Positions 28,545 through 51,858 of a stretch of 64,000 nt of DNA are shown here, one piece after another (the stretch's first letter is position 1; each line of letters begins with the position of its first letter). The notes under the pieces were generated by a model, which was not told the origin of the DNA, made no database searches, and saw only the letters and a program-made list of their open reading frames with translations. The stretch is from Nitrosopumilaceae archaeon (lineage in GTDB: Archaea > Thermoproteota > Nitrososphaeria > Nitrososphaerales > Nitrosopumilaceae), in assembly GCA_965209085.1 (NCBI GenBank), contig OZ242376.1, positions 1,184,001-1,248,000 on the forward strand, in the 5' to 3' direction. The position numbers were made by a program, and so were the translations under genes.

Positions 28545-29543
28545 TTATTTTTTTACTTTGCGGATTCGTTCCGAGTGCCTGCCCGGTATCTCTACGACGT
28601 ACAGACCATCGCCTAGGTCCACAAACCAGTTTAACAACACATCAACATTCTCGGTCAGCTCACGCCTAGTTGGTACAGGCACATCCACACAATTATCTTG
28701 TATCCATGCCTTTATGGCTCCAAAATGCTCGCCATTTTCAATAAACCCATCAATTTCAACTATAAACGGATGTGCAAAAAATGCACCCTGTAATTTTTTC
28801 CTAAATTCTTCATCAGACATACCTTTTTTTAACGAGTAGTTTGCAATATCATGAAACGCACAATTTCGTTTTTCAGTATTATCAATTACCACGTTATTTT
28901 CCATATCATGATAACACTGCAGCAAGTTACCGACTGAACTGCTCATGGGAAGTGCGGATATAAGAAACGCCTGTTTCTTGTACAGATAGTCTGTAATCTC
29001 ATTTTCTTCTGCAAGCGGTGGCATTTTTTGCTGTTTATTTTTCCAAATTTTTGCCCAAGCGTATACGTCATCATCCACTAGTATTGAATTTTTTTGAATT
29101 GATGCAAGATACAATCTATCATTATCCGTCAGATCATATATCAGCGTAGCGCATTCTATGCTAGGCTTGTCCGTATCAACGCCAAGACCGCGACCGGAAA
29201 CATTGGCAGTAGAAAGTATGACATCATCAAAATCCACAGAGTATACCTTGAGATGTATGCTGTTATTCACGTACAATCGTGCATCAAGTTTTTCACATAT
29301 GCGATATGATTCAATATCCGAGGCGCCAGATGCAATATCCCTAGGCTTCCAGGATGTAATCACTACGATTTCAGCATCAATGCCATCCAAAAGCCGCTCA
29401 AGTACTGTAGATTGGATATACGGTGCGATCACGTATACTATCCCATACGTTCCAGACGCACTCATCAGATACTCCCGAATTTGTCCAAAAAGCGGGTTTT
29501 GTAAAAGACGGTTTTTAGACTGATCGGGCATATTATTAGCCAT
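28545..29543 (-). CDS. PLD/HKD nuclease-like protein with C-terminal domain
   Basis: IAPYI, HLKVYSVD and STANVSGRGL; divergent from the desulfurase operon. Confidence 0.82.
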   Translation of the reverse strand: MANNMPDQSKNRLLQNPLFGQIREYLMSASGTYGIVYVIAPYIQSTVLERLLDGIDAEIVVITSWKPRDIASGASDIESYRICEKLDARLYVNNSIHLKVYSVDFDDVILSTANVSGRGLGVDTDKPSIECATLIYDLTDNDRLYLASIQKNSILVDDDVYAWAKIWKNKQQKMPPLAEENEITDYLYKKQAFLISALPMSSSVGNLLQCYHDMENNVVIDNTEKRNCAFHDIANYSLKKGMSDEEFRKKLQGAFFAHPFIVEIDGFIENGEHFGAIKAWIQDNCVDVPVPTRRELTENVDVLLNWFVDLGDGLYVVEIPGRHSERIRKVKK

Positions 29544-29610
29544 GTGTGTCTATACTATATCTTACGTGTATAGCTGATCTATGGTTGATCGCTATGCTAT
29601 CTGAATATTT

Positions 29611-30861
29611 ATGAAAGGCATAAAAATGCTAAAAATGAGAAATATGGAAAAACCCATCTATTTGGATTACAACTCGACCTCTCCGGTGGACGATCGTATT
29701 CTAAAGAAAATGCTCCCCATATTCACAGAAACGTATGGAAATCCATCAAACCAAAACCATGCCCACGGAGAGCAGGCGCGCACCATAATATCGGGAGCTA
29801 GAGAGCAGGTGGCCAAACTCGTAAACATGTCTCCATCAGATGTCATATTCACATCTGGGGCAACTGAGGCGAATAATCTTGCCTTGCAGGGTATGGCATC
29901 TCCGTCAGATGTTCCGTTAATTCTAGTGGGTGCAACAGAGCACAAATCCATCTTAGAGGTGGCAGACGTATTGCATAATAACAAAACTGCCGTCGTGAAG
30001 AAAATCCCAGTTACTTCAGATGGGACAATAGATCCTCCCATATTGCATGAAATGTTAAAGGATGTAAAATGTAAGATCCTAGTATCCGTCATGGCTGTAA
30101 ACAGCGAGACAGGGGTTTTGCATCCCATAGGCGAGATTGCAGATATTGTACATAGTTATGGAGGATTGGTTCACTGTGATGCAACACAGATAGTATGCCA
30201 TATGAAATTTGACAGTGAATATTATGGATTGGATATGATATCGCTGAGCAGTCATAAAATATACGGACCAAAAGGTGCAGGAGCCCTAGTGGCAACAAGA
30301 GAGGCACGAAAGATGCTGCATCCGATATTGTATGGCGGAGGGCAAGAGGATAATCTTAGAAGTGGAACGTTAAACGTTCCAAGTATTGCAGGATTTGGCA
30401 TGGCATGTGAAATGGTATCCAATGAAATAGATTCAAGTGGCATATTAGAGGATGGTGTATTGGATCAGATAAAACTTCGAGACTATTTGGAAAAAAAATT
30501 GCTCTCACTATTACCGGATACGCGCGTAAATGGATCCACCTCTAGGCGTATTCCAAATACTACCAATATTCATTTTGCCGGCGCTGATGCAGATGCAGTA
30601 ATGTCAAATATGCCGAATCTTTCCGTATCATCTGGCAGTGCTTGTGCATCATCCACTATTGAACCATCCCACGTATTGACCGCCATGGGAATGACTTTTG
30701 AGGAAGCAAATCAGTCCATACGGTTTTCGCTGGGATGGGCAACTACAAAAGAAGAGATAGACCGGGCAATAGACATGATAGTATATGCGGTGGAATTTGT
30801 TCGAGATATGGAAGGATACATAGAGAAAGCAGAGATTGGAGGGATAAAACATGCGAATTGA
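29611..30861 (+). CDS. Cysteine desulfurase (DndA/SspA-like by context; start may be 29644)
   Basis: YLDYNSTSP, FTSGATE, HCDATQ, SSHKIYGPKG and catalytic GSAC; overlaps the DUF4007 gene. Confidence 0.93.
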   Translation: MKGIKMLKMRNMEKPIYLDYNSTSPVDDRILKKMLPIFTETYGNPSNQNHAHGEQARTIISGAREQVAKLVNMSPSDVIFTSGATEANNLALQGMASPSDVPLILVGATEHKSILEVADVLHNNKTAVVKKIPVTSDGTIDPPILHEMLKDVKCKILVSVMAVNSETGVLHPIGEIADIVHSYGGLVHCDATQIVCHMKFDSEYYGLDMISLSSHKIYGPKGAGALVATREARKMLHPILYGGGQEDNLRSGTLNVPSIAGFGMACEMVSNEIDSSGILEDGVLDQIKLRDYLEKKLLSLLPDTRVNGSTSRRIPNTTNIHFAGADADAVMSNMPNLSVSSGSACASSTIEPSHVLTAMGMTFEEANQSIRFSLGWATTKEEIDRAIDMIVYAVEFVRDMEGYIEKAEIGGIKHAN

Positions 30862-31804
30862 GGATGCAGTAACAAAGCCCGGATTTGCCCGCCATGAGAC
30901 ATTTCACTTACGGTATGGCTGGCTCAAGAAATGCTATAATTTTGTAAAGGAGAGAAACTCCTTTCAAGATGAGAGTGCACCAGTCAAGATGGGAGTTGGT
31001 AAAAACATGGCAAAATCAATCAGATTTTGGGGATTGGCAACTAAGATCATAGAGTATGATACGGATGGGAAGAGAAAATCAGAATCCCTCACTCCTACAG
31101 AATTTGGAGATTTCATATTTGATGAAAATGGATGCGATCCATATTTGGAAAAATCAGATACGGCTTGGCTATTACATTGGAATTTGTTTGCCCCACCCAC
31201 AATGCTGCCAGTATGGTGGATTTTAATGAATGAATTTGACGTGGTTCGCAGTACACCTGAGGACATGCTTAAATTTGCACATGATAAAATATCTCAAATT
31301 GCAGACTGGAAACAACCCAACATAAACTCGATAAAAAAAGATGTAGATGTATTCATACACACATACACGACAGGTCGCAACAAAAAAACCACAATGGAGG
31401 ATTATTTGGATTCGCCATTTCGTAGCATGAATATAATAAAACGTAGTAGTGTTGATTCCTCATTACATTTCACCTTGGGTAAAAAACTTGGCATGTCTGC
31501 AAATACTGCTGCATACATTTGCTTTGATTTTCTTAGCAAACGTGGAACTGGGTCTAAAACAATTGCGATAACCACACTTGCTACAGAACCTGGAGGACCT
31601 GGAAACGCATTAAAATTGGATGAGGGAAACCTTTTATCATTGTTGCATGAATCTGCAACCGAGCATTCTAATCTGTTTCACATACAAGAGGTAAATGGCA
31701 TGGCACATCTTTCATTTGAAAAATCTACCCAAATGTGCAAAGAAAAACTACAAAAAAGCATCTATGATGTAAACCCAATTTTGGAGGCTCGAGTTAAGGC
31801 ATGA
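30851..31804 (+). CDS. DUF4007 family protein (SspB-like)
   Basis: FARHETFHLRYGWLKK, GVGKNMAKSIRFW and DPYLE...WLLHW. Confidence 0.9.
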   Translation: MRIEDAVTKPGFARHETFHLRYGWLKKCYNFVKERNSFQDESAPVKMGVGKNMAKSIRFWGLATKIIEYDTDGKRKSESLTPTEFGDFIFDENGCDPYLEKSDTAWLLHWNLFAPPTMLPVWWILMNEFDVVRSTPEDMLKFAHDKISQIADWKQPNINSIKKDVDVFIHTYTTGRNKKTTMEDYLDSPFRSMNIIKRSSVDSSLHFTLGKKLGMSANTAAYICFDFLSKRGTGSKTIAITTLATEPGGPGNALKLDEGNLLSLLHESATEHSNLFHIQEVNGMAHLSFEKSTQMCKEKLQKSIYDVNPILEARVKA

Positions 31805-34800
31805 AAATCAAATCTACTAAAACACACAAGGCCACCCCTCTAACTAGCATAGTTCAGCCAAAATCAGAATATGTCCGATCCGCCAATGTGGAACGTGATA
31901 CGTTTACATTAGATGCGTTTGCTCATTATGTTTCCGATTCTACAATAGTGGATGTAATTAGACGTGTGGTCGTATCCATGAACAAAAGTAAATCTGGTCG
32001 GGCATTCTCCATAACAGGTCCATACGGTTCTGGCAAATCTACTTTGGCAGTATTTTTGGAAGGGTTGTTATCTGCAAAAAAAGATCCTGCATACGAACAA
32101 TCCAAGAAATTTCTAGACAGCATATCCTCAGAAGTGTCAGAAATATTGGAAGATGGTCGCCATATACTCACTGCACAAAGGAATGGATTCATACGATGTA
32201 CGATAACCTCACAGTCTGAACCAGTCTCAATATCTGTAATACGAGCGCTAGATCGTGGTGCAAGAAAATATTTTGGGAATAAATATAGTAACAAGCATTT
32301 TGCTACCGCCTCTGCACTTCATAATGCCATAAACGTGGTCGAAAATGCGACCATTAAAGGCAATATTGCAGAAATTCCAGATGCGCGATCTATTCGCTAT
32401 ATTGTAGCAGGCATGTGTGAAAAAGCGCCAGTACTTTTGTTACTAGATGAATTTGGCAAAAACATGGAATATTTTGCAAAAAACGACAGTGTAGCAGACA
32501 TGTACCTGTTGCAAATGTTAGCCGAATACGGCAGTGGTAAAAAAGCACTCCCGTTGTTCCTCATCACCTTGCAACACATGGCATTTGAAGAATATTCAGA
32601 GGGCATATCTGCACCAAATCGACGTGAATGGTCAAAAGTGCAAGGTCGTTTTGATGACATCCCATTTTCAAATTCACCACAACAAACATGGGAATTAATA
32701 TCAAATTCCATTGATATTAGCCCGTTTCCTCTAAGCCTAAAAACATGGTCAAAAAATCAACATAAAAAATTACTAAAAATTACAAACAAATCAATACCTA
32801 GCACATTACAAATTGGTAATTGTTACCCATTACATCCCCTATCTCTAGTAACTCTCCCAGAATTGTGTACTAGATACGGTCAACATGAAAGAACTCTACT
32901 CTCGTTTATGGTTGGAAGTGGTAAAAACACTGTGCATGATTTTTTGGATAATAATAATTGGGATCCACAAAACCCGTCTACAGTTGGTCTAGATGTATTG
33001 TATGATTATTTCATATCTGGACACAGATCGGTTCACAACCATACATCAGCCAATATTACTCTCCTAATGGAGATTCATCTAGTAATACGGGATTCTCACG
33101 GCCTCTCAAATCTAGCATCAAAGGTATTGAAGACAATCGGACTGCTAAACCTGTTGAGCATATCTGGACCTCTTAGGGCATCATCTAGCATGCTAGAATA
33201 TGCAATAGGCAAAGATTATCAATCAGCAATCCAGGAATTGCGACAGCGTTCCATAATTACATACAGGGAATATGCTGATGAATTTCGGGTCTGGAGGGGA
33301 ACTGATGTTGATCTCCAGTCATCAATAGACATTATACGCCACAGATATACCAAAACTCCCCTCCACGAGATCTTGGAAAAAGTTCAAAATCTTGATTCAA
33401 TGGTTGCAGCAAGACATGGTATCCGTAAAGGTACAATGCGTACCTTTGAGAGAGGGTTTTTGGACAATAAAGGGAACAGAATTTATGAACCTGAAAATGA
33501 CGACGGATTGGTTCTGTACTCTAGCGGGGATATGGTACAATCTACAAAGAAAATCGCAAAACCTGTAATCATAGTAGAATCTAGAGATGATCTTTTACCC
33601 CTGAGGCATTCTGCAATAGATGCACTATCCATAAAGGAAATTTTGGATACAGATCCCAACGTATCAAAAGATTGGGTTGCACGCAAGGAATTATGGGAAC
33701 GTATGGAATGGGCTACAAGCTCAGTAGAAGAGGAATTTCGTAGAGCATACGATCAGAATGCAACTTGGTGGTATATCAATCCACCAAATGGTAAAAAGAT
33801 CAAACTATCTGGAACAGGCGGCATGGCCATATCCCAAGCATCTGATTTAGCGTATGATATGATGCCACGCATACTCAACGAAATGATAAACAGAAATCAC
33901 CTATCAGCACAATCATCACGTGCACGTGCATTATTGGTTAATTCTATGATAAATCATGAACACGACATTCGTTTTAACATCAAAGGCTGGGGACCGGAGA
34001 GAGCAATGTATGAAGCTATTTTTGCAAATACAAAACTACACATTAAATCCAGTAAAAATTGGAATCTTGTAGAATCAGGAGGGAAATTCAAAAATGTATG
34101 GATACATGTAATGAAATATCTCGGATCAAACAAGGAGAGACGAATAAATTTGAATGAGATCTATATGGAGCTCCAAAAACCACCATTTGGGATAAAACTT
34201 GGTCTGATCCCGATAATAATAATATCAATGTTTGTGGCTAGTCACAATAAGATTGCCTTGTATGAGCATGGAACATACTGTCCGGAACTAGAACCTCAGA
34301 TACTAGAACGAATGTACAAAAACCCCAAATATTTTGAATTCAAATATTTTGGAGACAAGATGAATTTGCGACGCAGTATAATAACCGCAGTTGCAAAAGA
34401 GATGGAAATTACTTCAAAATCCAACAATGTTGAAATTTTAGACATTGTTGGAAAATTGGTAAAAACCATTGTAAAACTTCAAAAATATACCAAACATACA
34501 AAATCGTTCAAAGATAAACATACGCTAAAAGTACGCGATGCAATAATCAATGCAACAGAGCCTGATACATTGTTGTTTGATCTTCTTCCACAGGCTCTAA
34601 ACATTGATTTATTTGGAAAACATGCAAATGTTAGGACAATAAACAAATTTGCAAAAAATCTTGCTCGCTCACTGCATTTGTTAGAAAATACGTACGATGG
34701 TATGATTAATGATCTAGTCATCGAATTGTTAGATGTTTCTGGAATTGGGAAAAAAGAAGATCTAGTATCAGTTGCGGCCAATTTAAAAAATCAAATTAAA

Positions 34801-35238
34801 ATGGATCCAAAAATGCTCGGCATATTAAATGCCATATCTGTGGGAGATCTTGATGATTCTGATTGGATAACATACATTGCAATGGTTTTAACCGATGTGC
34901 CTCCAACCGATTGGACGGATCAGGATAAACTACAATTCAGTACAAACCTTGCAGAATTTGCAGCCAAATTCAAACGTATATTGGCAATACATGTTGATAA
35001 AATTAAAAAATCTGGCAGCGTACTACATCGTATTACCATTACAGAAAATACCGGACAAGAGTATATGAGCATGATACAATTAGATGATAAATATGGAACT
35101 AAATTCAAAACGGACGTACATAAATTAATCTCAAAAATAAAAAATGATAAAAATATTAAAACAGAAGAAAATGCCATTAACACAATTTTAGCTATACTTG
35201 GAAAAAAACTAGGTGTAAAAATTGCCAATACCGAATAA
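31801..35238 (+). CDS. Large P-loop ATPase (SspC/BrxC-like)
   Basis: GPYGSGKS, LLLDEFGK, EWSKVQGRF, YPLHP, GQHERTL and PPFGIK; ATGA overlap with the upstream gene. Confidence 0.85.
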   Translation: MKIKSTKTHKATPLTSIVQPKSEYVRSANVERDTFTLDAFAHYVSDSTIVDVIRRVVVSMNKSKSGRAFSITGPYGSGKSTLAVFLEGLLSAKKDPAYEQSKKFLDSISSEVSEILEDGRHILTAQRNGFIRCTITSQSEPVSISVIRALDRGARKYFGNKYSNKHFATASALHNAINVVENATIKGNIAEIPDARSIRYIVAGMCEKAPVLLLLDEFGKNMEYFAKNDSVADMYLLQMLAEYGSGKKALPLFLITLQHMAFEEYSEGISAPNRREWSKVQGRFDDIPFSNSPQQTWELISNSIDISPFPLSLKTWSKNQHKKLLKITNKSIPSTLQIGNCYPLHPLSLVTLPELCTRYGQHERTLLSFMVGSGKNTVHDFLDNNNWDPQNPSTVGLDVLYDYFISGHRSVHNHTSANITLLMEIHLVIRDSHGLSNLASKVLKTIGLLNLLSISGPLRASSSMLEYAIGKDYQSAIQELRQRSIITYREYADEFRVWRGTDVDLQSSIDIIRHRYTKTPLHEILEKVQNLDSMVAARHGIRKGTMRTFERGFLDNKGNRIYEPENDDGLVLYSSGDMVQSTKKIAKPVIIVESRDDLLPLRHSAIDALSIKEILDTDPNVSKDWVARKELWERMEWATSSVEEEFRRAYDQNATWWYINPPNGKKIKLSGTGGMAISQASDLAYDMMPRILNEMINRNHLSAQSSRARALLVNSMINHEHDIRFNIKGWGPERAMYEAIFANTKLHIKSSKNWNLVESGGKFKNVWIHVMKYLGSNKERRINLNEIYMELQKPPFGIKLGLIPIIIISMFVASHNKIALYEHGTYCPELEPQILERMYKNPKYFEFKYFGDKMNLRRSIITAVAKEMEITSKSNNVEILDIVGKLVKTIVKLQKYTKHTKSFKDKHTLKVRDAIINATEPDTLLFDLLPQALNIDLFGKHANVRTINKFAKNLARSLHLLENTYDGMINDLVIELLDVSGIGKKEDLVSVAANLKNQIKMDPKMLGILNAISVGDLDDSDWITYIAMVLTDVPPTDWTDQDKLQFSTNLAEFAAKFKRILAIHVDKIKKSGSVLHRITITENTGQEYMSMIQLDDKYGTKFKTDVHKLISKIKNDKNIKTEENAINTILAILGKKLGVKIANTE

Positions 35239-36355: not shown

Positions 36356-37162
36356 ATGATCATGGGAGATATTCCAACTAGAGATGACATAAGCATAGGC
36401 TCATCAGTACATGTAATCTGCAAAAATGATCAAAAAAGTGGTAAAATCACAAAAGGTATCGTTAAAAAAATATTAACAAAGTCACACGATCATCCATATG
36501 GAATAAAAGTAGAACTTGAAGACGGTAAAATCGGCAGAGTAAATAAAATTGAAACTCGTAACATCACATCTGCAGTAATAAATAACAAAACAAATCCAAA
36601 TGAATCCATTTTTGAATTACTTGATGAAAAAATTATACCGAATACAGAAGATACACAAAATGAATTCAAAGAATTTTATCAATACGATGAAGATATGGCA
36701 AAAATACCATTAAATATGTCGAATAGAAATTCAATAATAAACACAAAAGCTAAAGTTGTTCAAAAAAGATTTGTTATTGCAGTTTGTGCATTTGGCAATA
36801 GCCAAATAGGTGGTTTTGTTTACATCGGAATCGATGCTAAAGGGAAAATTATGGGGTTAGATAGAGATATGAAATTTGGAAAATTTTCAAATTATACTGA
36901 TGAATTTGCAAATCATGTAAGGGATACACTTGGCCATTATTTGCAAAATAGATCTTTTGTTGTCAGTAAATTAAAATTTGAATTTACAAAAAGAAATGAT
37001 AAAACCATATGCATAATACAAGTATCTCCATCAGATGATGCATTATTTTTTACTGATGGTAAATTATCCGAATTTTATGTACGTGGACCAGCGCCAAGAG
37101 CTGAACATCTTACTGGTAAAGATATGGCCACATATATTATGGGCAGATTTCAAAATAATTGA
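36356..37162 (+). CDS. YwbE domain fused to AlbA_2/Schlafen-like domain
   Basis: N-terminal YwbE motif, then EDTQNEFKE, AVCAFGN..GGFVYIGID and FYVRG. Confidence 0.8.
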   Translation: MIMGDIPTRDDISIGSSVHVICKNDQKSGKITKGIVKKILTKSHDHPYGIKVELEDGKIGRVNKIETRNITSAVINNKTNPNESIFELLDEKIIPNTEDTQNEFKEFYQYDEDMAKIPLNMSNRNSIINTKAKVVQKRFVIAVCAFGNSQIGGFVYIGIDAKGKIMGLDRDMKFGKFSNYTDEFANHVRDTLGHYLQNRSFVVSKLKFEFTKRNDKTICIIQVSPSDDALFFTDGKLSEFYVRGPAPRAEHLTGKDMATYIMGRFQNN

Positions 37163-37353: not shown

Positions 37354-39111
37354 GTGTGGCGTCTAAAATTATCTGTGGGAACTGCAAAATTAGTAGAACT
37401 AAGTGAAAAACAAATACGAGACATATTTGGACATGAACATCATTATCAAGTTCCAAAATATCAAAGAGAATATTCATGGTCAGATGAACAAATTAGTGAA
37501 TTTATGTCTGATTTGTTTGAACATGTGGATAACGAATTAGAAAATTATTATTATTTTGGAACAATTTATCTTATTGGTATTAATGATAAAAATGAGGAAT
37601 GGATGGTTGTCGATGGTCAACAACGCATAACTACATCACTCATTTTTCTTACTGTTGTTCGTGACATAATTAGAGAATTTGATAAAAATGACTATGCAAA
37701 TGAAATTGATCGATATATAAAATATCAACACGAATCAGAATATAAAATACGTTTAGAATTAAATACTAGAAATAATGATTTTTTTAAAAATAATATGATG
37801 ACAGATAGGACAACTGATCAAAAATTTTTATCGTTCAAATCTGCTGAAAGTCAAAATAAAAATCTTGTTGATGCATATACAAATATTTATGAACATATAC
37901 AGAATAAAATTAATAAATTAACAAAACAAGATATAAAATTAGAATATTTGAAAAATACTGTAGAATATTTTCTGAAATATTTTATTGTGACTCAAAATAT
38001 TGTTGAATCACATGAAGTCGTTCAAGAAATTTTCGATACAGTAAATCATAGAGGAATACAATTATCGGAAATGGATTTTGTTAAAAATGAAATACTAGAA
38101 CTAATTGAACAAGATAAAGATGAAAATGAAGATGTTGGAGAATGGAATCAACAGTGGATAGAAATTTTAAATATTCTAAATATGATCAAAGTAAAAGAAA
38201 CTCAATTTCTTCGACATTATTTATTAGCATATCATAAAAAAACTGCAATGAAAAATGTTGCCAATACAATTATTTCTATTGTTGAAGATGGAATACCACC
38301 GACAGAATTTATTAAAGAATTACGCTCTACAGTAACAAACTATGCTATACTAAAGAATCCACCATCATTCCGTGAAAACAGGAAATTACATAATAGTTTG
38401 AATGCAGTAATATCATTAGAATCACAGACATTATATCCTGCATTGTTAGTTGGATATGAAAAATTAGGAGATAGTGAACTATTTATCAAATTGACAGATA
38501 TGTTAGTAAAATATTTTTTTAGAGCTAGAACGATATATCATAAAGAATCCCACAATATTGAAAACGCCATAGTGAAAATCTGTGTTATGCTAAGAACAAT
38601 CCCAGATACTCCATCACAAGATGTCTTGGAAGGTATCAAAAACTATCTTCATTCCCCAAAAATAAATCCGTCTGATGATGATTTTGTGTCTGCTTTTAAA
38701 ATATGCACAATAAAAAATGAAAGTACCGCAATCTATATTCTAAGTAAACTAAATGAAGCAATGTCTGGTCATGATCAAATTGACAATCCATTTTTAGAGT
38801 ACATAATGCCAAAAATGATTACAGATACTAAATGGGATGAATATTTAAGGGGTAAATTAAGAATAAGTGATATCAATGATCGTAAAATTTATCATTTAAA
38901 TAATTTATATAAAATTGGAAATATGACTTTACTTAATACACAACATGTGCCCAGTTCAGATTATATCGATATAAAAATAAGTACAATATATAATGATGAA
39001 AAAATACTAATGACAAACTCTTTGAAAAAATTTATCAAGTGGGATGAAGAAGATATTAAAGAACGTCAAGAAATGTTTTCAAAGTTAGCTAGAAAAATTT
39101 GGCAATTATAG
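37354..39111 (+). CDS. DUF262-DUF1524 (GmrSD/SspE-like) protein with degenerate HNH
   Basis: VPKYQREYSW, VDGQQR and FDTVNHRG; the C-terminus has LEYIMP (normally EHIxP) and IGNMTLL. Confidence 0.85.
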   Translation: MWRLKLSVGTAKLVELSEKQIRDIFGHEHHYQVPKYQREYSWSDEQISEFMSDLFEHVDNELENYYYFGTIYLIGINDKNEEWMVVDGQQRITTSLIFLTVVRDIIREFDKNDYANEIDRYIKYQHESEYKIRLELNTRNNDFFKNNMMTDRTTDQKFLSFKSAESQNKNLVDAYTNIYEHIQNKINKLTKQDIKLEYLKNTVEYFLKYFIVTQNIVESHEVVQEIFDTVNHRGIQLSEMDFVKNEILELIEQDKDENEDVGEWNQQWIEILNILNMIKVKETQFLRHYLLAYHKKTAMKNVANTIISIVEDGIPPTEFIKELRSTVTNYAILKNPPSFRENRKLHNSLNAVISLESQTLYPALLVGYEKLGDSELFIKLTDMLVKYFFRARTIYHKESHNIENAIVKICVMLRTIPDTPSQDVLEGIKNYLHSPKINPSDDDFVSAFKICTIKNESTAIYILSKLNEAMSGHDQIDNPFLEYIMPKMITDTKWDEYLRGKLRISDINDRKIYHLNNLYKIGNMTLLNTQHVPSSDYIDIKISTIYNDEKILMTNSLKKFIKWDEEDIKERQEMFSKLARKIWQL

Positions 39112-39283: not shown

Positions 39284-40322
39284 CTAAAAAATTAGATAAT
39301 CGTGCAGTTTGACAAGTTTCATCTGTTTGGACAGTATGACCTTGTCAATTTTCTTTTTCAGGTGTCTGATCGATTCAAAATGCCCATTTGATATGCATTT
39401 TCGTAAAACACGCCACTGGATTTCTATAGGATTCAGCTCTGACGTATACGGTGGAAGATAAATTAACCTGATTCGTCCTTTTCTAGATTTGACGTATTCG
39501 AATACGTCACAGTGGCGATGATAAGAGGCATTATCGTACACTATTGTCACATGATCAAACTCTTTTTCCAGGATTTTTATAAAATCCAAATGGCTGTCTT
39601 TGTTTGCTTTATCGTAAAACTCGAATATGAAAGAATCCTTGTTCAAGCTCCAAACATGGTTATTCTGTGTCTAGTCGGATCCAATGGAACTTGGGGTTTG
39701 CTGCCTATGAGGTACCATGTGTCACGGATATTGGTTGTTGGATGCAGATGAATCTCATCCATAGCCACGGTTACTGCTCAGTGTGCCTCTCTGCCAATGT
39801 GCCTAGCTTTTTTCTAAAGTGCTCCTGTTCACTCTTTGATGCATCTTTGGGATGGTACTGACGGGGTTTTTGAATTGTAAATCCAAGACGTTTGAGTAGA
39901 TTTTGTACAAAACGAGGGACATATTTTACTTTGAATTTTTTTCAGATGTGATCCGTTACCATTACAGTAGACCATGCGGACTGACCATATCTGTATTTTT
40001 CAGGTACGGCAATCAGATCCTTTGTTAGTTTTTCAAGCTGTTTTTCTAAAAAATAGCATCCCCTGCCAAGATGTTTTATGTTGTATCTGAAGGTTAGTCA
40101 TCCTCCATTACCCGTATGAGCCATTTGCATATTGTTGTCTTTTTTACGCCAAGTTCCTCGCCAATTTCCTCTCATTGTTTTACCCTATTTTCTTTTAATC
40201 CATGAGAGAAGACGCTGTTTTGCAACTGGAATCTTTTCTTTTGCATGACAATTTCTAAGATATGCGATGCTCATGTTTGGCATGAACTTGATGCCTGCCG
40301 GAATTCTGTTCTGTCGTGTCAT
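39284..40322 (-). pseudogene. IS630-family transposase pseudogene (second subtype)
   Basis: DEIH, YDNASYH and YLPPYTSELNPIEIQW; multiple frameshifts upstream. Confidence 0.85.
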
Positions 40323-42162: not shown

Positions 42163-43790
42163 ACATCATCCCATTTAAAAAAAGCGTCTACAGGATCAGT
42201 GAATTGTGATAACGCATTATCTTTAATTACACGTATGTCACATTCTTTATTTCCGCCAACATTAATTCCACGCATAGCTCTGCCCACCATTTGACTGTAC
42301 AAAACAAGCGATTTTGTCGGTCTTGCAATTACAACTGCAGATGTTTTTGGGGCATCGAATCCAGTAGTAAATACTCCAACATTACACATGATTATTACAT
42401 CATCTGTTTCGGATTTATATTCGTTGATTAGTTGACTTTTAGTAATTGGATCAGTATCTGCATCAATATGGAATGATTTATGTTTAAGATACGTTAGAAT
42501 TATAGATATATCTCTAGAATTTTTAACACTAGCACCAAATACAATTATTCTTTTATGTTTTTCTGAGTTTATTAGATCTTTGATCTGACCGATAACCCGA
42601 ATGGTGCGACTAATATCCTTACCAATCTTATCAAGTATTGTATCCGGAATATCCGTGGGGGAATTAAAAATTTTTATTAAATCATCATCAGTTAGTTTTA
42701 TGTCGGATCGTATAGGTGTAATTTTTGGTTTAGACAAATATCCTTTTTTTATAAGATATTTTATTGGATTTTTATATCCAGATATTGTCAAGCTTACCTT
42801 ATTACAATTAAAAAATGATGACAATTCATCACTTTTTGATATCGAGGTTCTTCCAGGAGTCGCACTTAACCCCAATAACGGTATTTTATTAAAACGTTTT
42901 TCTGTTAATTGTTCTAAAATTTCCAAATATGTTGGCGCTATTGCTTGATGGGCTTCATCCATTATCACTAAATCTACACGATCAGCTAACTTACTAAGAA
43001 ATAATTCATCCCGTTTACTTTTTTGAAAAATTTTTCCTAAACTAGCTACAATTAAACCATCTTTATCAACATCAGTATATTTTATTAAATTAGTAGAATG
43101 ATTTCGAAAAAAACGAAATATGCGTATATTTCTATCTCCTGCATTGATCCACGTTTGTTTAAATTCATCAATTGCTTGCTCGCAAAGTTCTTCACTATAT
43201 GCCAACCAAATTATTAATACAGGTTTAGTTCTTGAAAAAAATGTCGATATTACTCGCATTGCAGTAATTGTTTTACCAGAACCAGTGGGCATATGTAAAA
43301 TACAACGCCGTCCATCATCATTATCTAAATAATTTACAATTTCCTCATATGCTTTTCTTTGATAATCAAATAATGATCTTTTTGGCATCACATTTTCTAT
43401 ATCACTTAATGTGGGAGGTTCATCTAATTCTATAGGAATTTTTTCCCCAAAAAATTCAAATAAAATTTTTTCAGATGTACTGTTTTTATTAAATGGGATA
43501 TTATGCATTTCTCTGTATACGTTATCCTCATTTAACTGAACATTTGTTATTTTTTGTAATAATTTTATTAATTCTGACGGACGCATACTATTTAATAATA
43601 ATTCTCTGATTTTTTTAGTTCGTAACATCTCTAGATGTGTATAATGTGAGGAAATGCATTGGCGTAATTTATGTGGATGTTGTAATTGCTCATCACTCAT
43701 CAATTGTATTATTTTAATTGCTTCTTTACTTATGAAATGATCTTGAATGGCAAGTTCACCCAATCGGTTAAAAATATCATCTAATTTCAA
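42156..43790 (-). CDS. SF2 DEAH helicase (ResIII/Helicase_C)
   Basis: LFDYQ, MPTGSGKT, DEAH, LSATP, TGFDAP and QMVGRAMRG; overlaps the GHKL gene. Confidence 0.92.
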   Translation of the reverse strand: MKLDDIFNRLGELAIQDHFISKEAIKIIQLMSDEQLQHPHKLRQCISSHYTHLEMLRTKKIRELLLNSMRPSELIKLLQKITNVQLNEDNVYREMHNIPFNKNSTSEKILFEFFGEKIPIELDEPPTLSDIENVMPKRSLFDYQRKAYEEIVNYLDNDDGRRCILHMPTGSGKTITAMRVISTFFSRTKPVLIIWLAYSEELCEQAIDEFKQTWINAGDRNIRIFRFFRNHSTNLIKYTDVDKDGLIVASLGKIFQKSKRDELFLSKLADRVDLVIMDEAHQAIAPTYLEILEQLTEKRFNKIPLLGLSATPGRTSISKSDELSSFFNCNKVSLTISGYKNPIKYLIKKGYLSKPKITPIRSDIKLTDDDLIKIFNSPTDIPDTILDKIGKDISRTIRVIGQIKDLINSEKHKRIIVFGASVKNSRDISIILTYLKHKSFHIDADTDPITKSQLINEYKSETDDVIIMCNVGVFTTGFDAPKTSAVVIARPTKSLVLYSQMVGRAMRGINVGGNKECDIRVIKDNALSQFTDPVDAFFKWDDVW

Positions 43791-43918: not shown

Positions 43919-44754
43919 TCATCAAGCCCTGCTCATCTTGCCAGTATTGCAAATATTGTGTTTTAGAGTATAGCATACGCTAGGATAGCATCCAACACAA
44001 AGTGTCAGAATCTAGACTGCGGCAGCTAAAATGGGAATATTATGGCACAAGACAAAAAAGCCCAATTCAATTTTCTGTGTTGCAAATTTGCTGGCACTTA
44101 GAATAGAAGAAACCTTCTCTTCATGGATGAAAACATGGCCTCTACATTGCTGCGTTTGTAGTATATGGATAGAAATTCATCAGGATTATCAAGATGCCAT
44201 CGTATCCATTGCGTCAAATCCACGTACACGAACACCTTTTCTTGGCATTATTACAGGAATTTGTCCGGTCTTTTCTATTAGCGTGCATATGTTGCGTGAA
44301 AGGTATGCTGCATCAAGCATCACGTGACCGGAACCGTGCGGCAGTGTGCCACATATTTGCTCAAATATTGGTACATCATGGCATCGTGTATGGGTAATAT
44401 CATATGATATGATGATTATGCTGTTTTCAGCAGTTACAATATACAATTTGCGATAATCCCATCTGAACCTTGATCCATTTTTTGCATAAAGCCACGTGTT
44501 ATGCCCGTTTATTGCAATTCCTGTAGAAACCCAGTACAGTGTACCTTTCATTCCAGGTCTACCTGCAGAATTTATCATCCATGTGATGAAATGCTCATCA
44601 ATTCTAGTAAATGTTACCTGCAACACCGACCTTGACGGCACTCTTTTCAAGCCCAGTATTGATAGTAAACGTGGTGAATCTTCAAGATAATCTACGAGTT
44701 CATCATATAACAATTGTTGCATTGTCTTTAGGGCAATATACGTAGTCATTCCCA
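43919..44754 (-). mobile_element. IS5/IS4-like transposase pseudogene, copy B
   Basis: Inverted near-duplicate of 9690..10538. Confidence 0.8.
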
Positions 44755-44862: not shown

Positions 44863-44886
44863 CTCATTGTACAGGGGTCCGCACCA
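44863..44886 (+). repeat. Solo IS3-type right end
   Basis: CTCATTGTACAGGGGTCCGCACCA is identical to the ends at 2580 and 21605. Confidence 0.75.
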
Positions 44887-44959
44887 TTATGCATACGGTT
44901 TACTGCACAAGATGTTTGACCTTGCCAAAAAGATTATTTATTGGATACCAAGGTGTAAT

Positions 44960-46009: not shown

Positions 46010-47379
46010 AGAGTTTATGCACAATCAATCCCATAGACATACGATTCTGACTGTGGCATTACCATGATCAAAACGCATAGTGAATAAAGTTCTCAAGCAG
46101 ACAACAAAATAAATCAAAATGTCATATATATGACAAAAAGCAAAATATTATGCGTGACCGTGTGCACAAAAATGTACTATTTGATTTGCGGGCAGACTCT
46201 CTCCAACGGTTCGATGTATTTACGATCCTTTAACATGTTATGCAGATTGGTCAGTCCTGTAACCACTTGGATTTCTGTATAAAACGCATCCATTGTATCA
46301 TCACATATGGCACTCATTCTACGGAACCATTTGAGCCGGTTTATGGCATGCTCTATTTTTATGCGCTTACGACTGATCCTCTTGCTGTATTCGCGTTCCG
46401 TCTCTGTCAGCCCCTTACCCTTTGGTTTTTTGTACGGCTACTTTAAGATAATTCCAGGATAGTCTTTTTCCACGGACAAGTATCCCTTGTCGGTGTAGAG
46501 TGTAATTTGGTACTCTTTTTTGGTATCAGAGTTTTTCATACCATCGGTCCATTTGCCAAAATTTGGCAGATTACGTCGCAGTACCTTCATGTCGTGTGCC
46601 GAGCCCTCTTCGGGTCTGCCAATGTCAAGTACCAGCCCATCCTTGTTGGATGTTATCTGTACGTTGTAGACGTACCTCTTACGCTTTCCAGAGTATACTA
46701 CCTCTTGGCTCTCCTGCGGTCTTTGAACCTGTACAGATGTGGCATCAAGATACAGATCTCCACCACCCCTGCCTGATGCGAATTTTTTAAACGACTCGAC
46801 GGTACGCTCTTCCCGTATTGCAGCACCAACATTCTCAGCCGTTGGAAGAATATTCATCAACAATTCATCAGAAAAGGTCAGATATCGGCTGATGGTACTC
46901 TGATCAACGCCGGCAATGACCGCAAGCATTTCCTGTTGGGGGTTATTGCGCTTGTGGCAGTGTGACAAACAAAATTTGTGGCGCAGTAAGGATACATGTA
47001 TTTCCCGGATCGTCGACATATTCTGAAAAGCGAGGGGTTTCTGGCGAGTCTACAGCGTTTATGAACCGTTCCTGAATCCATTCAAATTCTTCACGATCCA
47101 TTCCAGTCATCCCGTATAGATAATTATCATCATCAACCATATGGTTCAAGTATTAGTAAGCAGATTGTTTTTCGGTCTTATCCCCATCTATCATTTTTTT
47201 GTAGCGTTGATTTTCTGCTTCAAGATTGGAGATTCTTTTTTCCAACTTGGAGATTATTCTTTTTTCCAACTTGGAGATTATACGTTTGTCTGTGGCACAC
47301 ATGTTGTGTGGTTGTAATACTTGATCATAGATCTTTCGATTCATCAAAATTGCTTTTTTGGTTAATATGCACAAACTCT
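46010..47379 (-). mobile_element. IS5-superfamily (ISL2-like) element, copy 2, pseudogenised
   Basis: Frameshifted paralog of 11..1165; AGAGTTT.TGCA-type IRs; ATT target duplication. Confidence 0.9.
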
Positions 47380-47428: not shown

Positions 47429-48256
47429 CTACAAATGACACATTGTACACGATTTTGCGTCATCTTCATCATCTAGCGCTTCAGATAAAACATCAACCAA
47501 TGGCAAGTTTTTTCGACTAGATTTTGCTTTTAAAAGTGCAAGTTTATGTTTTTCTTCAATTTCAGAACGCCTACCAATTAATTCTGGCAATGTTTCCCCC
47601 GGAGACCAAGAATACTGACGTTCTTTCATAGCATGATCTTCAAATGAGGATTTTCCATCATTCATTACTTTTTGTTCTATAGCTACGGCCTGTTTAAATA
47701 AATCAGGATGTTTATCAGCTAGTCCTACCCATTCGGATTTTCTCTGAAAAAAACAAAAATAACAACCAGAACGTGTGCGCCATTCATAATAATCAGGCAA
47801 ACCTATTCCAGATTCTTCCAGTATGCGTAATATGTCCACATGTTCCATATTGTCATCTATAAAAGGAAATTTAGTTGTAATGTTGGGTTTTGACGAAATA
47901 TGTCCTTTACGGTTTTTTTCATCTGCACGAATTGCCACATATGATACAGTTTCATCATCCCCAATCCATTCTTCTAGTGGTTTGATCTTTAATAATTTAG
48001 TACACCATCGCATTTGGGGGGATGGTAAAGTTCCACGAAATACCTCAAAATAATGATCAAATCCCCTCTTAGAATTAAGTCGGGCTATAGGTTTGCCAAG
48101 CACTGTTTCTAATTTTTTCAAATAAGTATAAGTCTCTGGAAGCTCAGCTCCGGTATCACAGAAAAAATACTCCATTTCTGGAACTTTTTCACGCATATAC
48201 ACTGCTAATGCACTAGAATCCTTCCCTCCAGATATACCACAAACATGTCTAACCAT
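47429..48256 (-). CDS. PAPS reductase-family protein (SspD/DndC-like)
   Basis: GISGGKDS PP-loop, DTGAELPET, RWCT, RSGCYFC and C-terminal CxxC. Confidence 0.9.
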   Translation of the reverse strand: MVRHVCGISGGKDSSALAVYMREKVPEMEYFFCDTGAELPETYTYLKKLETVLGKPIARLNSKRGFDHYFEVFRGTLPSPQMRWCTKLLKIKPLEEWIGDDETVSYVAIRADEKNRKGHISSKPNITTKFPFIDDNMEHVDILRILEESGIGLPDYYEWRTRSGCYFCFFQRKSEWVGLADKHPDLFKQAVAIEQKVMNDGKSSFEDHAMKERQYSWSPGETLPELIGRRSEIEEKHKLALLKAKSSRKNLPLVDVLSEALDDEDDAKSCTMCHL

Positions 48257-48329
48257 GCCTAATGTTATAGAGTCATGATTTTAAAACTTTTATTTGGAAA
48301 CTATCAATTTCATAACTAATGGATGAAAT

Positions 48330-50742
48330 AAGCCCATGGGGGTAATGCTAGAATATATAAAATATGGGGATCTGAAAAAATACCCGATATTAGATCTGGA
48401 AGTAGTTTTATTGTTATGGGATATGCAAAATATAATAGCATATTAAAGAAAAATAAATCATTTTCGTTAGAACCGGATCTAGTGGTTGTAGATGAAGCTC
48501 ACCAAATCATCGTCAAAAAATATGTAAAATTATTACATTTGCTCACACCATTTTTGAAAGGTACGAGAGTAATTGTATTATCTGCCACTCCAGGTAGAGG
48601 TACAAAAATAGAACAAAATTTGAAACTAGTAGAATAATTTAACGATAATATAGAAAGAATCAGCGTTCCTAATGAATCGACTGAAAAATTAGATGATCAT
48701 AATGTAATTGCACATTTAGAAGAGCAAGGAATTCTATCCAGGATTGATCCTGACCCATTGATGACAAATATTAGATTTGATCTTTCAGATAAGGTTTGAA
48801 AACGTTTTGTCAAAATGATTGGAGATAAATATACTGATTTTGAAGAAACTGATCTTGTAAATCTTACCAAAAATATTCATAGAAATGCATTGACAGCACA
48901 ACGAATAATAGAATTATTAAAAAAGAAAAAAAGAATTTTATATTTTTGAACCACAAGCGAACAAACGTTGTTAATGTATGCGGTGATTTTAAAATTAGGA
49001 TATAATGCAGGATATGTTAATAGACCTCATGCATAATTAACTAAAAAATCAATTTTGGCAAATCGAAAGATCTATGATCTAGTATCATGTGAGCATAGCA
49101 TGTGCAAATCAGACAAACGCATGATCTCTAAACTGGAAAAGACGATCTTAAAGATGGAAAAGACGATCCTAAAGATGGAAAAGAATAGCTCCAGGCAGGA
49201 ATCAGAAATTCAACACTACAAAAAGATGGCACAGAGTAGCAATGATGACAAAAGACAACATGTCGATAAATATTTGAACAAGGGAATTGGGAATGATGTT
49301 CATCTATATGAAATGACAGGAATGAACCGTGAAGAATTTGAATGGATTCTAGAACGGTTCAAAAAAACCGTAGAAAATTCATCAGAGATTCCCCGCTTTT
49401 CAGAATATGTGGACGATCCTGGAAACACCTGTATCCTTACCGTAAAGCAAGTTTTGTTTATCGTATTGTGCCGCAAACGCAATAATCTCAAACAGGGAGC
49501 ACTTGCGTTCATTGCAGACGTTGATCAGAGCACCATTAGCAGATATCTGACATTTTCTGATGAACTATTGATGGATATTCTTCCAACGGCTAAGAATATT
49601 GGTGCTGCAATACGGACAATACGTACAAGCGAGTTGTTTAAAAAATTCGTACCCGGCAGAGGCGGCGGCGAGCTATATCTTGATGCCACGTTTGTACAGG
49701 TTCAAAGACCGCAGGAGAATCAAGAGGCAGTATATTCTGGAAAGCGCAAAAGGCACGTCTACAGCATACAGATAACCTCCAACAAAGATGGAGTGGTAAA
49801 TGACATTGGCGGTCCAGAAGAGGGCTCAGTACATGACATGGAGGTACTGCGGCGTAATCCGCCAAATTTTGGCAAATGGACCGATGGCATGAAAAACTCT
49901 GATACAAAAAAAGAGCGCCAAATTACACTCTACACCGACAAGGGATACTTGTCCGTGGAAAAAGACTATCCTGGAATTATCTCAAAGCAGCCATACAAAA
50001 AACCAAAGGGTAGGGGATTGACAGAGACAGAACGCGAATATAGCAAGAGGATCAGTCGTAAGCGCATAAAAGTAGAGCATGCCATAAACCGGCTCAAATG
50101 GTTTCGCAGAATGAGTGCCGTATATGATGACACAATGGATGCATTTTATACAGAAATCCAAGTGGTTACAGGACTGACCAATCTGCACATCATGTTAAAG
50201 GATCGCAAGTATATCGAACCGTTGGAAAAAATTTGCCCTCAAATCAAGTAGCACATCTTTGTGCATACAGTCACGCATAATATCCTGCTTTTTGTCATGC
50301 ATATGATATTTGGATTTATTTTGTTGTCTGCTTGAAGGTTTTAGGCCATATGTACTTTGATCATGACAGTGTCATAGTAGGAACCGTATGTCTTTGCAGT
50401 TGATTATGCATGAACTCTAATGCAAAAACAGATAAAGAATTTAGAAAACAATTCATCATCAATAATTTTAGGGGTGGTGAAATTGACATTATTTTCAATC
50501 ATTCTGTATTTATCACATGATTTGATGCACCAGAAACTGACGTAATTTTTATTGCACGACCAATCTGCTCTCCAATATTAATATCTCAAATGGTTAGCAT
50601 AGGATTAAGAGGGTCCAATGTTGGAGGGACCAAATCATGTACGTTAGTACAAGTTGTAGATGAACTCAACAATCCATCTGAATTTGATCCGTATGCCAGC
50701 TATAGAATATTTCATCCGTATTGGCAAATTGATTCAGAATAA
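48330..50742 (+). pseudogene. Second SF2 helicase, disrupted by stops and an IS insertion
   Basis: VVDEAHQ and LSATPGR before the IS; T*FDAPETDVIFIARP..SQMV..GLRG..VGG after it. Removing the IS restores GYVNAKTD. Confidence 0.82.
49022..50418 (+). mobile_element. IS5-superfamily (ISL2-like) element, copy 3; intact transposase 49055..50251
   Basis: IRs AGACCTCATGCATAAT / ATTATGCATGAACTCT; AAT target duplication. Confidence 0.92.
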
Positions 50743-50766
50743 TTTTTTCAACAGTACAAAATTTAT

Positions 50767-51858
50767 TTACATACGTCTTTCCATAAACCCATATTCTTTA
50801 CAATTGTTATAATGTCTCTTTATTTCAGGTTCCCAGCCACGGCCCAAATCTAGCGTAGCAAGTGATTTTTTTAATACAGGTATTTGATGTTCATATTTAA
50901 TATTACGCTCTATCAGATAATTTAAAAACTTGAATTGGGCTAGAGAATTACTTTTTTTACAATTGCATTCCTGACATGCCAGTACAAGATTCCATGCACT
51001 GTCTTCAAATATGTAAGACCAAGGTATGAAATGATCCACATGTGTTGAAGGCATTTCATTCAATGTGCCATTACAGTAAAAACAATGTTTGACATCCTTG
51101 TATGTATTTAGATAATGGGTTAACGAACGTCTTCGTGCTTCTTCGGTTTCTATTTTTGCAATAAGTCTAGGAAATGTGTTGATTTTTTCAAGAAATTTAG
51201 ACCATTCCAATATCACTGTTTTAAACAAAACGGCATAATTTTGATTTAAAAAAACTGCAGCTTGTGGGAACAAAGTTATGTATTGTTTATCATCATCAAA
51301 ATCATAAAATATATTTTTCTGCATTACTTTGGCACCGATTCTCACATTTTGAAATCGCGGGACAACTAGAGATGTTTTTATGCGGGCATGTCCAAATACT
51401 TTTTTTAATATCTTTTTCCTTGCAGTTTTTACCAAATTATTTTCATTTTGTGCATATTTAGAAAACCCTTCTGGAATATACTGATCACCGAACGTACTGC
51501 GTAATATTTTAATGACTGATGGGGGCCTTTCATTGTAAAAATTTTGTTTTATCCTGTATCTGAATTCTTGATGCCAATAATATCTCAAAAATGCGTCTGC
51601 TAGCTCTTCATAACGTATGATGATTGTTTCATTAGTTTCCACCATCTTTGATAATCTGCTTGCAGGTAGAGCATTGCAATAATCCAAAAGAAATCTTGCT
51701 AACGCAAATTTGTAGGTATTATTTTTGTAACCGTGCGTCATAATGTGTATGAAAGTTTTTCTCAACTCGTCGGATTGATTCATCATGCATGCATGGTAGA
51801 CATACAGAGATTTAAGATCTCGTCTTATTTTTTGACAGATCTGCCACAAACACCTCAT
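50767..51858 (-). CDS. HNH endonuclease with N-terminal YKFAL domain (true start probably ~51786)
   Basis: CFYC...HVDHFIPWS...WNLVLACQECNCKKSN. Confidence 0.88.
   Translation of the reverse strand: MRCLWQICQKIRRDLKSLYVYHACMMNQSDELRKTFIHIMTHGYKNNTYKFALARFLLDYCNALPASRLSKMVETNETIIIRYEELADAFLRYYWHQEFRYRIKQNFYNERPPSVIKILRSTFGDQYIPEGFSKYAQNENNLVKTARKKILKKVFGHARIKTSLVVPRFQNVRIGAKVMQKNIFYDFDDDKQYITLFPQAAVFLNQNYAVLFKTVILEWSKFLEKINTFPRLIAKIETEEARRRSLTHYLNTYKDVKHCFYCNGTLNEMPSTHVDHFIPWSYIFEDSAWNLVLACQECNCKKSNSLAQFKFLNYLIERNIKYEHQIPVLKKSLATLDLGRGWEPEIKRHYNNCKEYGFMERRM

Follow-up and report, generated by a model that had tools for sequence, protein, structure and literature searches.

A stretch of 64,000 nucleotides from a Nitrosopumilaceae archaeon of the ammonia-oxidising type (contig OZ242376.1, positions 1,184,001 to 1,248,000; hereafter the window) carries the four genes of an Ssp-type DNA phosphorothioate (PT) modification system. 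The same locus encodes a superfamily 2 (SF2) helicase, a GHKL ATPase and a nuclease of the phospholipase D (PLD) family, three proteins that recur together beside PT genes in related archaea and on bacterial plasmids. We propose that this is a PT-based, restriction-modification-like defence locus in which the helicase-GHKL-PLD cassette would be the effector of SspABCD, cutting DNA that does not bear the host PT pattern. The probability of this reading is put at roughly 0.65.

The window genome is a single contig of 1.69 Mb, rich in insertion sequences (IS) and 98% complete. Genes were called from an open reading frame (ORF) listing together with Pfam, PADLOC (2.0) and NCBIfam scans. The PADLOC scan covered 22 proteins from 24.3-54.7 kb of the window at E<=0.001. 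Features are collected in Table 1.

Table 1. Features of the locus. Positions are those of the window, except in the last row, where they belong to the related loci named.
Feature	Position	Strand	Evidence
PLD/HKD-family nuclease, single HxK motif, C-terminal multi-winged-helix DNA-binding tail (probable)	28545..29543	-	fold and motif
SspA cysteine desulfurase	29611..30861	+	PADLOC SspA E 3.9e-125; Pfam Aminotran_5
SspB (DUF4007)	30851..31804	+	Pfam DUF4007 E 1.4e-77; PADLOC SspB E 2.3e-83
SspC, large BrxC-like P-loop ATPase	31801..35238	+	PADLOC SspC E 9.7e-284; BrxC 1.5e-91
DUF2196(YwbE)+Schlafen/AlbA_2 protein	36356..37162	+	Pfam DUF2196 1.4e-24, SLFN_AlbA_2 7.5e-10
GmrSD-family nuclease (DUF262+DUF1524)	37354..39111	+	Pfam GmrSD_N 2e-33, GmrSD_C 7.9e-8; motif DGQQR87
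IS630-family transposase fragment	39284..39646	-	Pfam DDE_3; NCBIfam IS630
GHKL (MORC-like) ATPase, S5/transducer-like second domain	40414..42162	-	Pfam HATPase_c_3 6.8e-20
SF2 helicase (ResIII type)	42156..43790	-	Pfam ResIII 6.6e-25, Helicase_C
IS5-family transposase fragment	44189..44749	-	Pfam/NCBIfam and genome matches
Decayed IS5-family copy, broken frame	46180..47347	-	tblastn, two frames, 85% and 57% identity to intact copy
SspD, PAPS-reductase-type PP-loop enzyme	47429..48256	-	PADLOC SspD E 4.7e-108, profile 1-276 of 277
Remnant of second cassette helicase	48356-49021 and 50365-50733	+	tblastn with sister-species helicase
IS5-family element, 1.4 kb (transposase 49055-50251)	49018..50421	+	Pfam DDE_Tnp_4
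HNH nuclease, intact	50767..51858	-	Pfam HNH_4 3.3e-11
ORF of ~190 amino acids after sspC	L030:15659-16222, L033:3823-4413, L041:3821-4396, L048:15593-16171, L066:15581-16159, L068:15582-16154, L045:3925-4233

The marking genes and the linked cassette

SspA, SspB, SspC and SspD each match the corresponding PADLOC profile end to end (E 2.3e-83 to 9.7e-284), the SspC match covering profile positions 2-1102 of 1104. By ORF coordinates sspA overlaps sspB by 11 nt and sspB overlaps sspC by 4 nt. Motifs are intact in SspA (SSHK213, containing the pyridoxal phosphate lysine, and SGSAC345, containing the catalytic cysteine), SspC (Walker A GPYGSGKS73 and Walker B LLLLDE212) and SspD (SGGKDS9). DUF4007 is matched above the Pfam cut-off, and the window SspB is its sole copy in the genome. 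The initial annotation of a coupled cysteine desulfurase-DUF4007-large ATPase operon, a PAPS reductase and intact motifs in all four core genes is upheld in coordinates, families and overlaps, the PAPS reductase being a full-length SspD. The sspBCD genes do not form one operon here; sspD lies 12.2 kb from sspC on the opposite strand. By homology with characterised Ssp systems, SspABCD is predicted to be the marking module.

Linkage of the cassette to PT genes was examined in 401 genomes of the archaeal class, with E<1e-15 as the threshold for the GHKL family. DUF4007/SspB was found in 26/401 genomes, all of them in the family to which the window belongs (25 of 223 other members). The GHKL family occupies 29 places in 27 genomes, and a PT gene is present in the stretch examined at 27/29 of these places. 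One of the two exceptions lies on a contig of only 11.8 kb, which stops short of any PT gene; the other is a second GHKL-helicase pair in genome G235. 22/26 SspB genomes contain the GHKL family, and 22 of the 27 genomes with the PLD family contain SspB. When 40 kb around 20 DUF4007 loci were searched with the window proteins, helicase plus GHKL were found in 15/20 Ssp loci, PLD in 13/20 (with one further truncated copy) and a Schlafen-like gene in 11/20.

Order and strand vary among these loci. The cassette genes still cluster, and frequently they are mixed with ssp genes in a single co-directional, overlapping array. Arrays on a single strand include SspD-Heli-GHKL-SspA-B-C (genome G020), PLD-Heli-GHKL-SspA-B-C-D (G283) and DndB-C-D-E-A-GHKL-Heli (G175). 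Two variants of the cassette were distinguished, one with the helicase gene before the GHKL gene (34-47% identity) and one with the reverse order (25-33%).

Five genomes with the GHKL family gave no DUF4007 match. In four of them (G062, G111, G175 and G302) GHKL, helicase and PLD genes lie directly beside canonical DndB-C-D-E-A (PADLOC E 1e-30 to 1e-194). In the fifth, G352, the contig is cut, with SspC at its start followed by SspD-GHKL-helicase. One more Dnd-linked cassette was recovered by scanning a genome collection with two peptide patterns from the PLD alignment. A maximum-likelihood tree of 18 GHKL proteins has two clades in which Dnd-linked proteins are interleaved with Ssp-linked proteins at high support, forcing at least three changes of Ssp/Dnd partner. 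Since the same cassette accompanies either SspABCD or DndBCDEA, it is more likely to sense the PT state of DNA than to dock on a particular modification enzyme.

A tblastn search of 72,556 plasmids with the GHKL protein gave hits in 20 records, and in 13 of these the alignment spans 80% or more of the query. Loci were inspected on 8 of the 13 full-length plasmids and, as a control, on 3 of the 7 with partial coverage. The triad, annotated as DEAD/DEAH helicase, "ATP-binding protein" and phospholipase D family, is present in 7/8 full-length loci; ssp genes are adjacent in 7/8, and triad and ssp genes occur together in 6/8. Five loci have the complete trio of DUF4007, large ATPase and PAPS reductase; in Geminocystis and Treponema the set is partial. 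The hosts are Cyanobacteriota, Bacteroidota, Pseudomonadota and Spirochaetota, with examples in Trichormus variabilis ATCC 29413 (plasmid A) and Roseobacter litoralis (pROLI83). The loci on pROLI83 and on Mesorhizobium pOM4 are compact. Over their full length the window proteins share 30-42% identity with the plasmid helicases (23% for Agrobacterium), 29-36% with the GHKL proteins and 23-31% with the PLD proteins. None of the partial-coverage controls (0/3) has helicase, PLD or ssp genes, and their contexts are unrelated. PLD, helicase and GHKL genes co-occur with the core elsewhere, both in the archaeal family and on bacterial plasmids. The archaeal scope first given to the system was too narrow, and the cassette pairs with DndBCDEA as well.

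Within the cassette, the helicase and GHKL genes overlap by 7 nt. The helicase has the motifs GSGKT170, DEAH278 and QMVGRAMR500 (QxxGRxxR), and its ATP motifs are invariant across 17 relatives. The GHKL motifs E33/N37 (ExxDN), D72xGxG76 and G100..G105 (GxxGxG) are invariant in 18/18 proteins. The pair had been described as a coupled SF2 helicase and GHKL/MORC ATPase, and the overlap and the intact ATP motifs of both proteins bear this out. Against PADLOC the helicase matches PbeA in part (E 1.3e-25), through the helicase core only (profile 245-438 of 672); TIGR04095 is matched too. The structural model of the GHKL protein (predicted local distance difference test score, pLDDT, 78.6) aligns with the ATPase modules of SMCHD1, MORC3, MORC2 and GyrB over 418-466 columns. 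This alignment with two-domain GHL ATPase modules indicates that the modelled protein is a MORC-like GHKL+transducer protein. Hsp90, GyrB, SMCHD1 and MORC structures score alike against the model, and the MzaB profile matches are weak only.

The PLD gene is divergent from sspA. Pfam offers no match for its product and PADLOC just a weak one, to DrmC, and a PDB sequence search with the PLD profile returned nothing meaningful. In the AlphaFold (AF2) model (pLDDT 80.8), residues ~8-165 fold like single-HKD nucleases, namely Nuc (Z 14.8), SauUSI (14.7), BfiI (14.2) and NucT (14.2). The root-mean-square deviation from Nuc is 2.5 across 140 residues, and Foldseek matched SauUSI at E 1.7e-5. The motif H97-x-K99...G-N114 (G113 region) is invariant in 14/14 relatives. 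Fold and HxK...GxN motif agree with the divergent HKD nuclease named at the outset. The tail (residues 191-332) resembles the uncharacterised structure 3bhw (Z 7.8), N.BspD6I (7.5), BrxA (6.8), SspB (6.2) and FokI (6.0). For SspB, BrxA and FokI the scores are middling (Z 6-8), and a similar arrangement can suffice to produce values of this size; we accordingly treat the tail as a probable module for DNA recognition. A profile search of 1.84 billion representatives shows the PLD family to be large: it returned 246 clusters with E<=1e-30, rising to 890 when the limit is relaxed to E<=1e-10. Among the 150 clusters listed, most are ~310-330 amino acids long and match over both domains. The Atlas clusters nearest to the family are mostly bacterial.

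Further variation was observed among the related Ssp loci. In two genomes, G152 (L051) and G291 (L059), the Ssp genes have true PbeA (E 3.2e-187), PbeC-like genes or both as flanking neighbours, indicating that PT modules of the family combine with at least two effector sets. An ORF of ~190 amino acids with no Pfam family directly follows sspC in 7/20 loci and is absent from the window. Across the family SspD is 70-77% identical, SspA, SspB and SspC 36-53% and the cassette proteins 25-47%; the gap between SspD and the rest may reflect differing constraint or recent exchange. G148 (L034/L035, L075) has sspA-sspB-sspD, and no sspC turned up there within 40 kb; another sspD, accompanied by a cassette, lies at a distance of 30 kb. 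The sspC gene is broken in two in G291 and G344, the piece for the C-terminal part being inverted. Two contigs, L100 and L089, are labelled Poribacteria and Alphaproteobacteria. One has a complete archaeal-type SspABCD-GHKL-helicase/PLD/Schlafen locus, its SspD 71% identical to that of the window, and the other has a PLD fragment 83% identical. Mis-binning in host-associated metagenomes is the probable cause, or else transfer.

Insertion sequences and accessory genes

DNA of a sister (same-genus) genome is colinear with the window across PLD-sspABC (28321-35220, 85%), sspD (47433-48256, 90%) and the 3' end of the HNH gene, and the two SspD proteins are 95% identical. In the sister species sspD lies ~500 bp past sspC on the opposite strand, and an intact GHKL>helicase pair comes next. 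The window has 12.2 kb extra between sspC and sspD, containing DUF4344, the Schlafen-like gene, GmrSD, the IS630 fragment, the helicase>GHKL pair, two IS5 remnants and DUF5677. This comparison indicates that the window gained the 12.2 kb between sspC and sspD and lost the GHKL-helicase pair adjacent to sspD.

A remnant of that helicase remains. It corresponds to sister helicase residues 242-460 and 440-565 at 37-40% identity, is without the ~240 N-terminal codons (the C-terminal ~325 residues are left) and has three in-frame stops in its first piece. The IS5 element at 49018-50421 splits it, and no GHKL partner remains beside it. What had been read as a second paralogous helicase beside the PAPS reductase is a pseudogene. 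The intervening IS5 element has five other genome copies at >=99% DNA identity. The IS630 fragment has 91.7%-identical protein matches (120 amino acids) at four other genome places and shorter ones at two more. Dozens of IS5 and IS630 copies are present in the genome.

IS elements have broken the system up into no fewer than four transcription units. Every core gene is intact, and the second, sspD-adjacent cassette copy is destroyed in this genome. Dispersal by IS insertions, as first suggested, is evident in the 12.2-kb insert, the lost pair and the IS5-split remnant. Contigs from four runs of DNA sequencing reads were compared with the window. Two of them, X1 and X2, match unique segments without differences and break at IS copies. 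An IS-free variant using the joint 48344>50476 was rejected as too weak (one run, depth 47 vs ~2,800, side 30). A fragment of 81 codons at 2632-2874 on the minus strand shares 86% identity with the N-terminal DUF2196 portion of the Schlafen-like gene. It lies beside IS copies and is read as a trace of an earlier rearrangement.

Several other genes lie at the locus. The Schlafen-like protein has a weak SLFN14/SLFN11 match (E 0.025-0.05). Its gene stands directly upstream of PLD in 10/20 related loci and apart from PLD in the window. The GmrSD protein matches PADLOC HEC-06 (1.1e-80) and the 'Orf5' model, both at full length. Against SspE profiles (~770 amino acids) it matches through residues 24-135 only (E 1.3e-14). 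The N-terminal 250 residues of the HNH protein gave no informative match in a PDB sequence search; a reader domain of the PT-binding (SBD) or SRA type was considered for this part and gained no support. GmrSD and HNH homologues occur in 7/20 and 6/20 loci respectively, a pattern that marks both as variable add-ons. The neighbours listed in the initial annotation were real in the case of PLD, the helicase-GHKL pair and HNH; HNH is a variable accessory, and the GmrSD nuclease and the DUF2196-Schlafen/AlbA_2 gene had been overlooked. DUF4344 (35222-36286) and DUF5677 (44867-46006) were considered as parts of the system and rejected. The former gave only short repeat-region matches in 2/32 related loci and the latter no match in any of the 32.

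Upstream of PLD, at 25410-28221, are two more candidates for defence genes, namely a 327-amino-acid ORF with a sub-threshold iSTAND match and the gene of a DUF4209 protein matching the PADLOC candidate PDC-S39 (E 2.7e-14). An operon at 4619-9379 encodes an SF1 helicase (AAA_11/AAA_12, 857 amino acids), a 375-amino-acid protein of no family and a two-domain PLDc_2 protein (362 amino acids). It is another candidate defence module and is unrelated in sequence to the helicase-GHKL-PLD cassette. A giant ORF of 2,865 amino acids (10575-19172, minus strand) has four bacterial-surface Ig-like domains and a strongly skewed composition. G+C is 0.27-0.40 across 24-55 kb of the window vs 0.44 in the housekeeping flank beyond tRNA-Arg, rising from ~0.33 to 0.44 past the tRNA-Arg(CCG) gene (54869-54944). 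The right edge of an integrated island probably lies at 53446-54944, where a 428-amino-acid protein with a weak XerA-type recombinase match adjoins tRNA-Arg(CCG).

Proposed mode of action and alternative explanations

PT chemistry, the formation of a complex and the restriction of unmarked DNA are predicted from the gene identities, motifs, folds and linkage described above. By homology, SspA would mobilise sulfur from cysteine, SspD would act as a PP-loop sulfur-transfer enzyme, and SspB (a multi-winged-helix DNA binder) together with SspC (a BrxC-like ATPase) would find sites and install PT on host DNA. The SF2 helicase, the MORC-like GHKL ATPase and the single-HKD PLD nuclease would act together as the effector set, usually joined in archaea by the DUF2196-Schlafen/AlbA_2 protein. 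The ATPase and helicase may load on DNA and scan or loop it. MORC/paraMORC restriction-modification systems are predicted to loop DNA between recognition and cleavage sites, according to the available text of PMC2292703. The PLD nuclease, presumably a dimer like Nuc or BfiI, would then cut DNA without the host PT pattern. The parts of the cassette resemble those of ATP-dependent restriction enzymes, namely the HKD-SF2 fusions PbeA and SauUSI and the MORC/paraMORC sets. Taken together, the set is probably a machine of enzymes not described before, directed against foreign DNA that lacks the mark.

Several observations weigh against the cassette as the effector of SspABCD. The archaeal genomes are kin, so the counts from them are not independent. 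4/26 SspB genomes have no cassette, and two of these carry PbeA/PbeC-like genes instead. Around the second GHKL-helicase pair in G235, neither a PT gene nor PLD occurs within 9 kb, and PLD paralogues of 32-33% identity stand alone in G235, G291 and G344. On the Agrobacterium plasmid the helicase and GHKL genes are accompanied by FtsK-like genes, and no ssp gene is visible at the locus. The PLD tail has middling structural matches, as noted above, and the cassette genes are dispersed in the window, where their co-regulation is at most putative.

Alternatively, helicase, GHKL and PLD may make up an ATP-dependent restriction system of their own, of the MORC/paraMORC or SauUSI kind, that lies beside PT genes only through defence-island clustering. 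MORC/paraMORC ATPases with SFII helicases and nucleases are predicted, in the text available of PMC2292703, to be restriction-modification modules that use methylases, and SauUSI joins PLD and helicase in one type IV enzyme. The second pair of G235 and the lone PLD paralogues fit this explanation, and the window is itself a dense island, with PDC-S39, GmrSD and HNH genes as well. Clustering alone accounts poorly for PT genes beside 27/29 GHKL places, for cassette and ssp/dnd genes mixed in co-directional overlapping arrays, and for the same pairing in four bacterial phyla. Partial-length GHKL controls on plasmids are found in other contexts (0/3), and no DNA methylase was seen among the window proteins scanned. 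A self-contained system is considered quite unlikely. We wondered also whether the cassette might not restrict unmarked DNA at all, being activated by PT like SspE or aiding modification through DNA remodelling for SspBCD, with a non-destructive PLD. In many loci, among them G185, G235, G202, G020, G357a and G214, the helicase and GHKL genes come straight after sspD. The conservation of SspD (70-77%) far exceeds that of the other proteins, and PbeABCD and SspE require PT to act, as far as the available texts state (PMC6459918, PMC8092258). The invariant nuclease motif of PLD speaks against this alternative, as does the lack of SspD beside the Dnd-linked cassettes. Sequence does not separate cutting of unmarked DNA (the SspFGH/DndFGH mode) from PT-dependent activation (the SspE/Pbe mode). 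A PT-activated or helper function is judged improbable.

The window system could instead be a decaying relic, its genes uncoupled by IS activity and no longer working as a unit. The genome is IS-rich, with its dozens of IS5 and IS630 copies; the 12.2 kb inserted relative to the sister species, the destroyed cassette copy and the separation of PLD from its usual Schlafen-like neighbour all point this way. The seven core genes are nevertheless full length with intact motifs, and the sspABC and helicase-GHKL overlaps are kept. Moreover, sspA is often unlinked in working systems, according to the text available of PMC12914056. A relic is doubtful.

The preferred reading, a cassette that serves SspABCD by cutting unmarked DNA, may be part of a wider pattern. 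The cassette could be a general reader of the PT mark, whether written on a single strand by Ssp or on both strands by Dnd, that cuts DNA without PT and is the missing partner for part of the many orphan sspBCD and dnd modification clusters of bacteria and archaea. We advance this extension tentatively. The available text of PMC8092258 reports SspE or SspFGH for ~15% of 2,678 sspBCD modules. Most ssp and many dnd clusters are without a known restriction partner, and the three-gene cassette is a concrete candidate. Eukaryotic MORC-type ATPases are readers of epigenetic state. If the proposal is true, MORC-type ATPases would be tied to a prokaryotic backbone epigenetic mark.

Comparison with known systems

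One of the closest known systems is SspABCD-SspE, reportedly described by Xiong in 2020 as a PT-sensing defence. The same function is given for it in the available text of Gao 2022 (PMC9646914). The two loci share the SspA, SspB/DUF4007, SspC and SspD module, and a protein with the domain set of SspE, DUF262 (NTPase) plus DUF1524 (HNH-type nuclease), is encoded 2 kb past the window sspC. Unlike SspE, this GmrSD protein matches the profile through ~110 N-terminal residues only, the conserved partner is helicase-GHKL-PLD, and sspD is unlinked in the window. SspE was rejected as the window effector, since there is no full-length match and GmrSD homologues occur in only 7/20 loci. SspFGH is likewise a multi-gene effector paired with sspBCD that contains ATPases and is predicted to damage non-PT DNA. 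SspF, SspG and SspH include Walker A and FtsK-like proteins in the text available of PMC8092258, whereas the window has an SF2 helicase, a GHKL ATPase and a PLD nuclease; none of the three was matched by PADLOC among the 22 window proteins. An Ssp module with partners other than SspE or SspFGH had been suggested before, and PADLOC bears this out, with no SspE match beyond the N-terminus and no SspFGH match; a linked cassette was found instead.

In the archaeal PT system DndCDEA-PbeABCD (PMC6459918; re-annotated in PMC10853773), as far as these texts are available, PbeA combines HKD nuclease and SF2 helicase in one fused protein. The HKD and helicase proteins of the window are encoded by separate genes. 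The place of the CxC ABC ATPase of Pbe, which is accompanied by DndE-like and small proteins, is taken in the window by a GHKL ATPase, and PADLOC matched neither PbeC nor PbeD there. The label of a bacteriophage exclusion (BREX-4)-like system does not hold: PglZ (PF08665) has no match in the whole 1.69-Mb genome, and a control search matched it in 2/14 genomes. BrxL had no PADLOC match among the 22 proteins scanned, the whole genome not having been scanned for it.

The MORC/paraMORC systems (Iyer, Abhiman & Aravind 2008, PMC2292703) are alike in combining a GHKL+S5 ATPase, an SFII helicase and a nuclease, sometimes HKD. Their operons mark DNA with a methylase, and the available text names no PT link; the window would mark with a PT module, and no DNA methylase family was found among its scanned proteins by Pfam or NCBIfam. 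SauUSI (PDB 7clg), tied with Nuc as the top structural match of the PLD domain, also couples a PLD nuclease to an SF2 helicase. It differs in being one polypeptide, an ATP-dependent type IV enzyme that attacks methylated DNA and works without a GHKL partner.

None of the PADLOC 2.0 models describes the helicase-GHKL-PLD cassette. A literature search found no PT-system paper with a GHKL/MORC partner, although supplementary tables and subscription papers may list such neighbours. The main text of PMC10853773 contains no mention of GHKL, MORC, HATPase, MutL or Schlafen, that of PMC12839542 none of MORC, and that of PMC12914056 none of helicase or PLD. For ammonia-oxidising archaea, the available text of PMC6790972 refers to "dnd" genes only. 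The effector set, called non-canonical in the initial annotation, is not SspE, SspFGH, Pbe or BREX-4. What is new here is an archaeal family of the cassette, its pairing with Dnd, and an example of IS activity dismantling such a locus.

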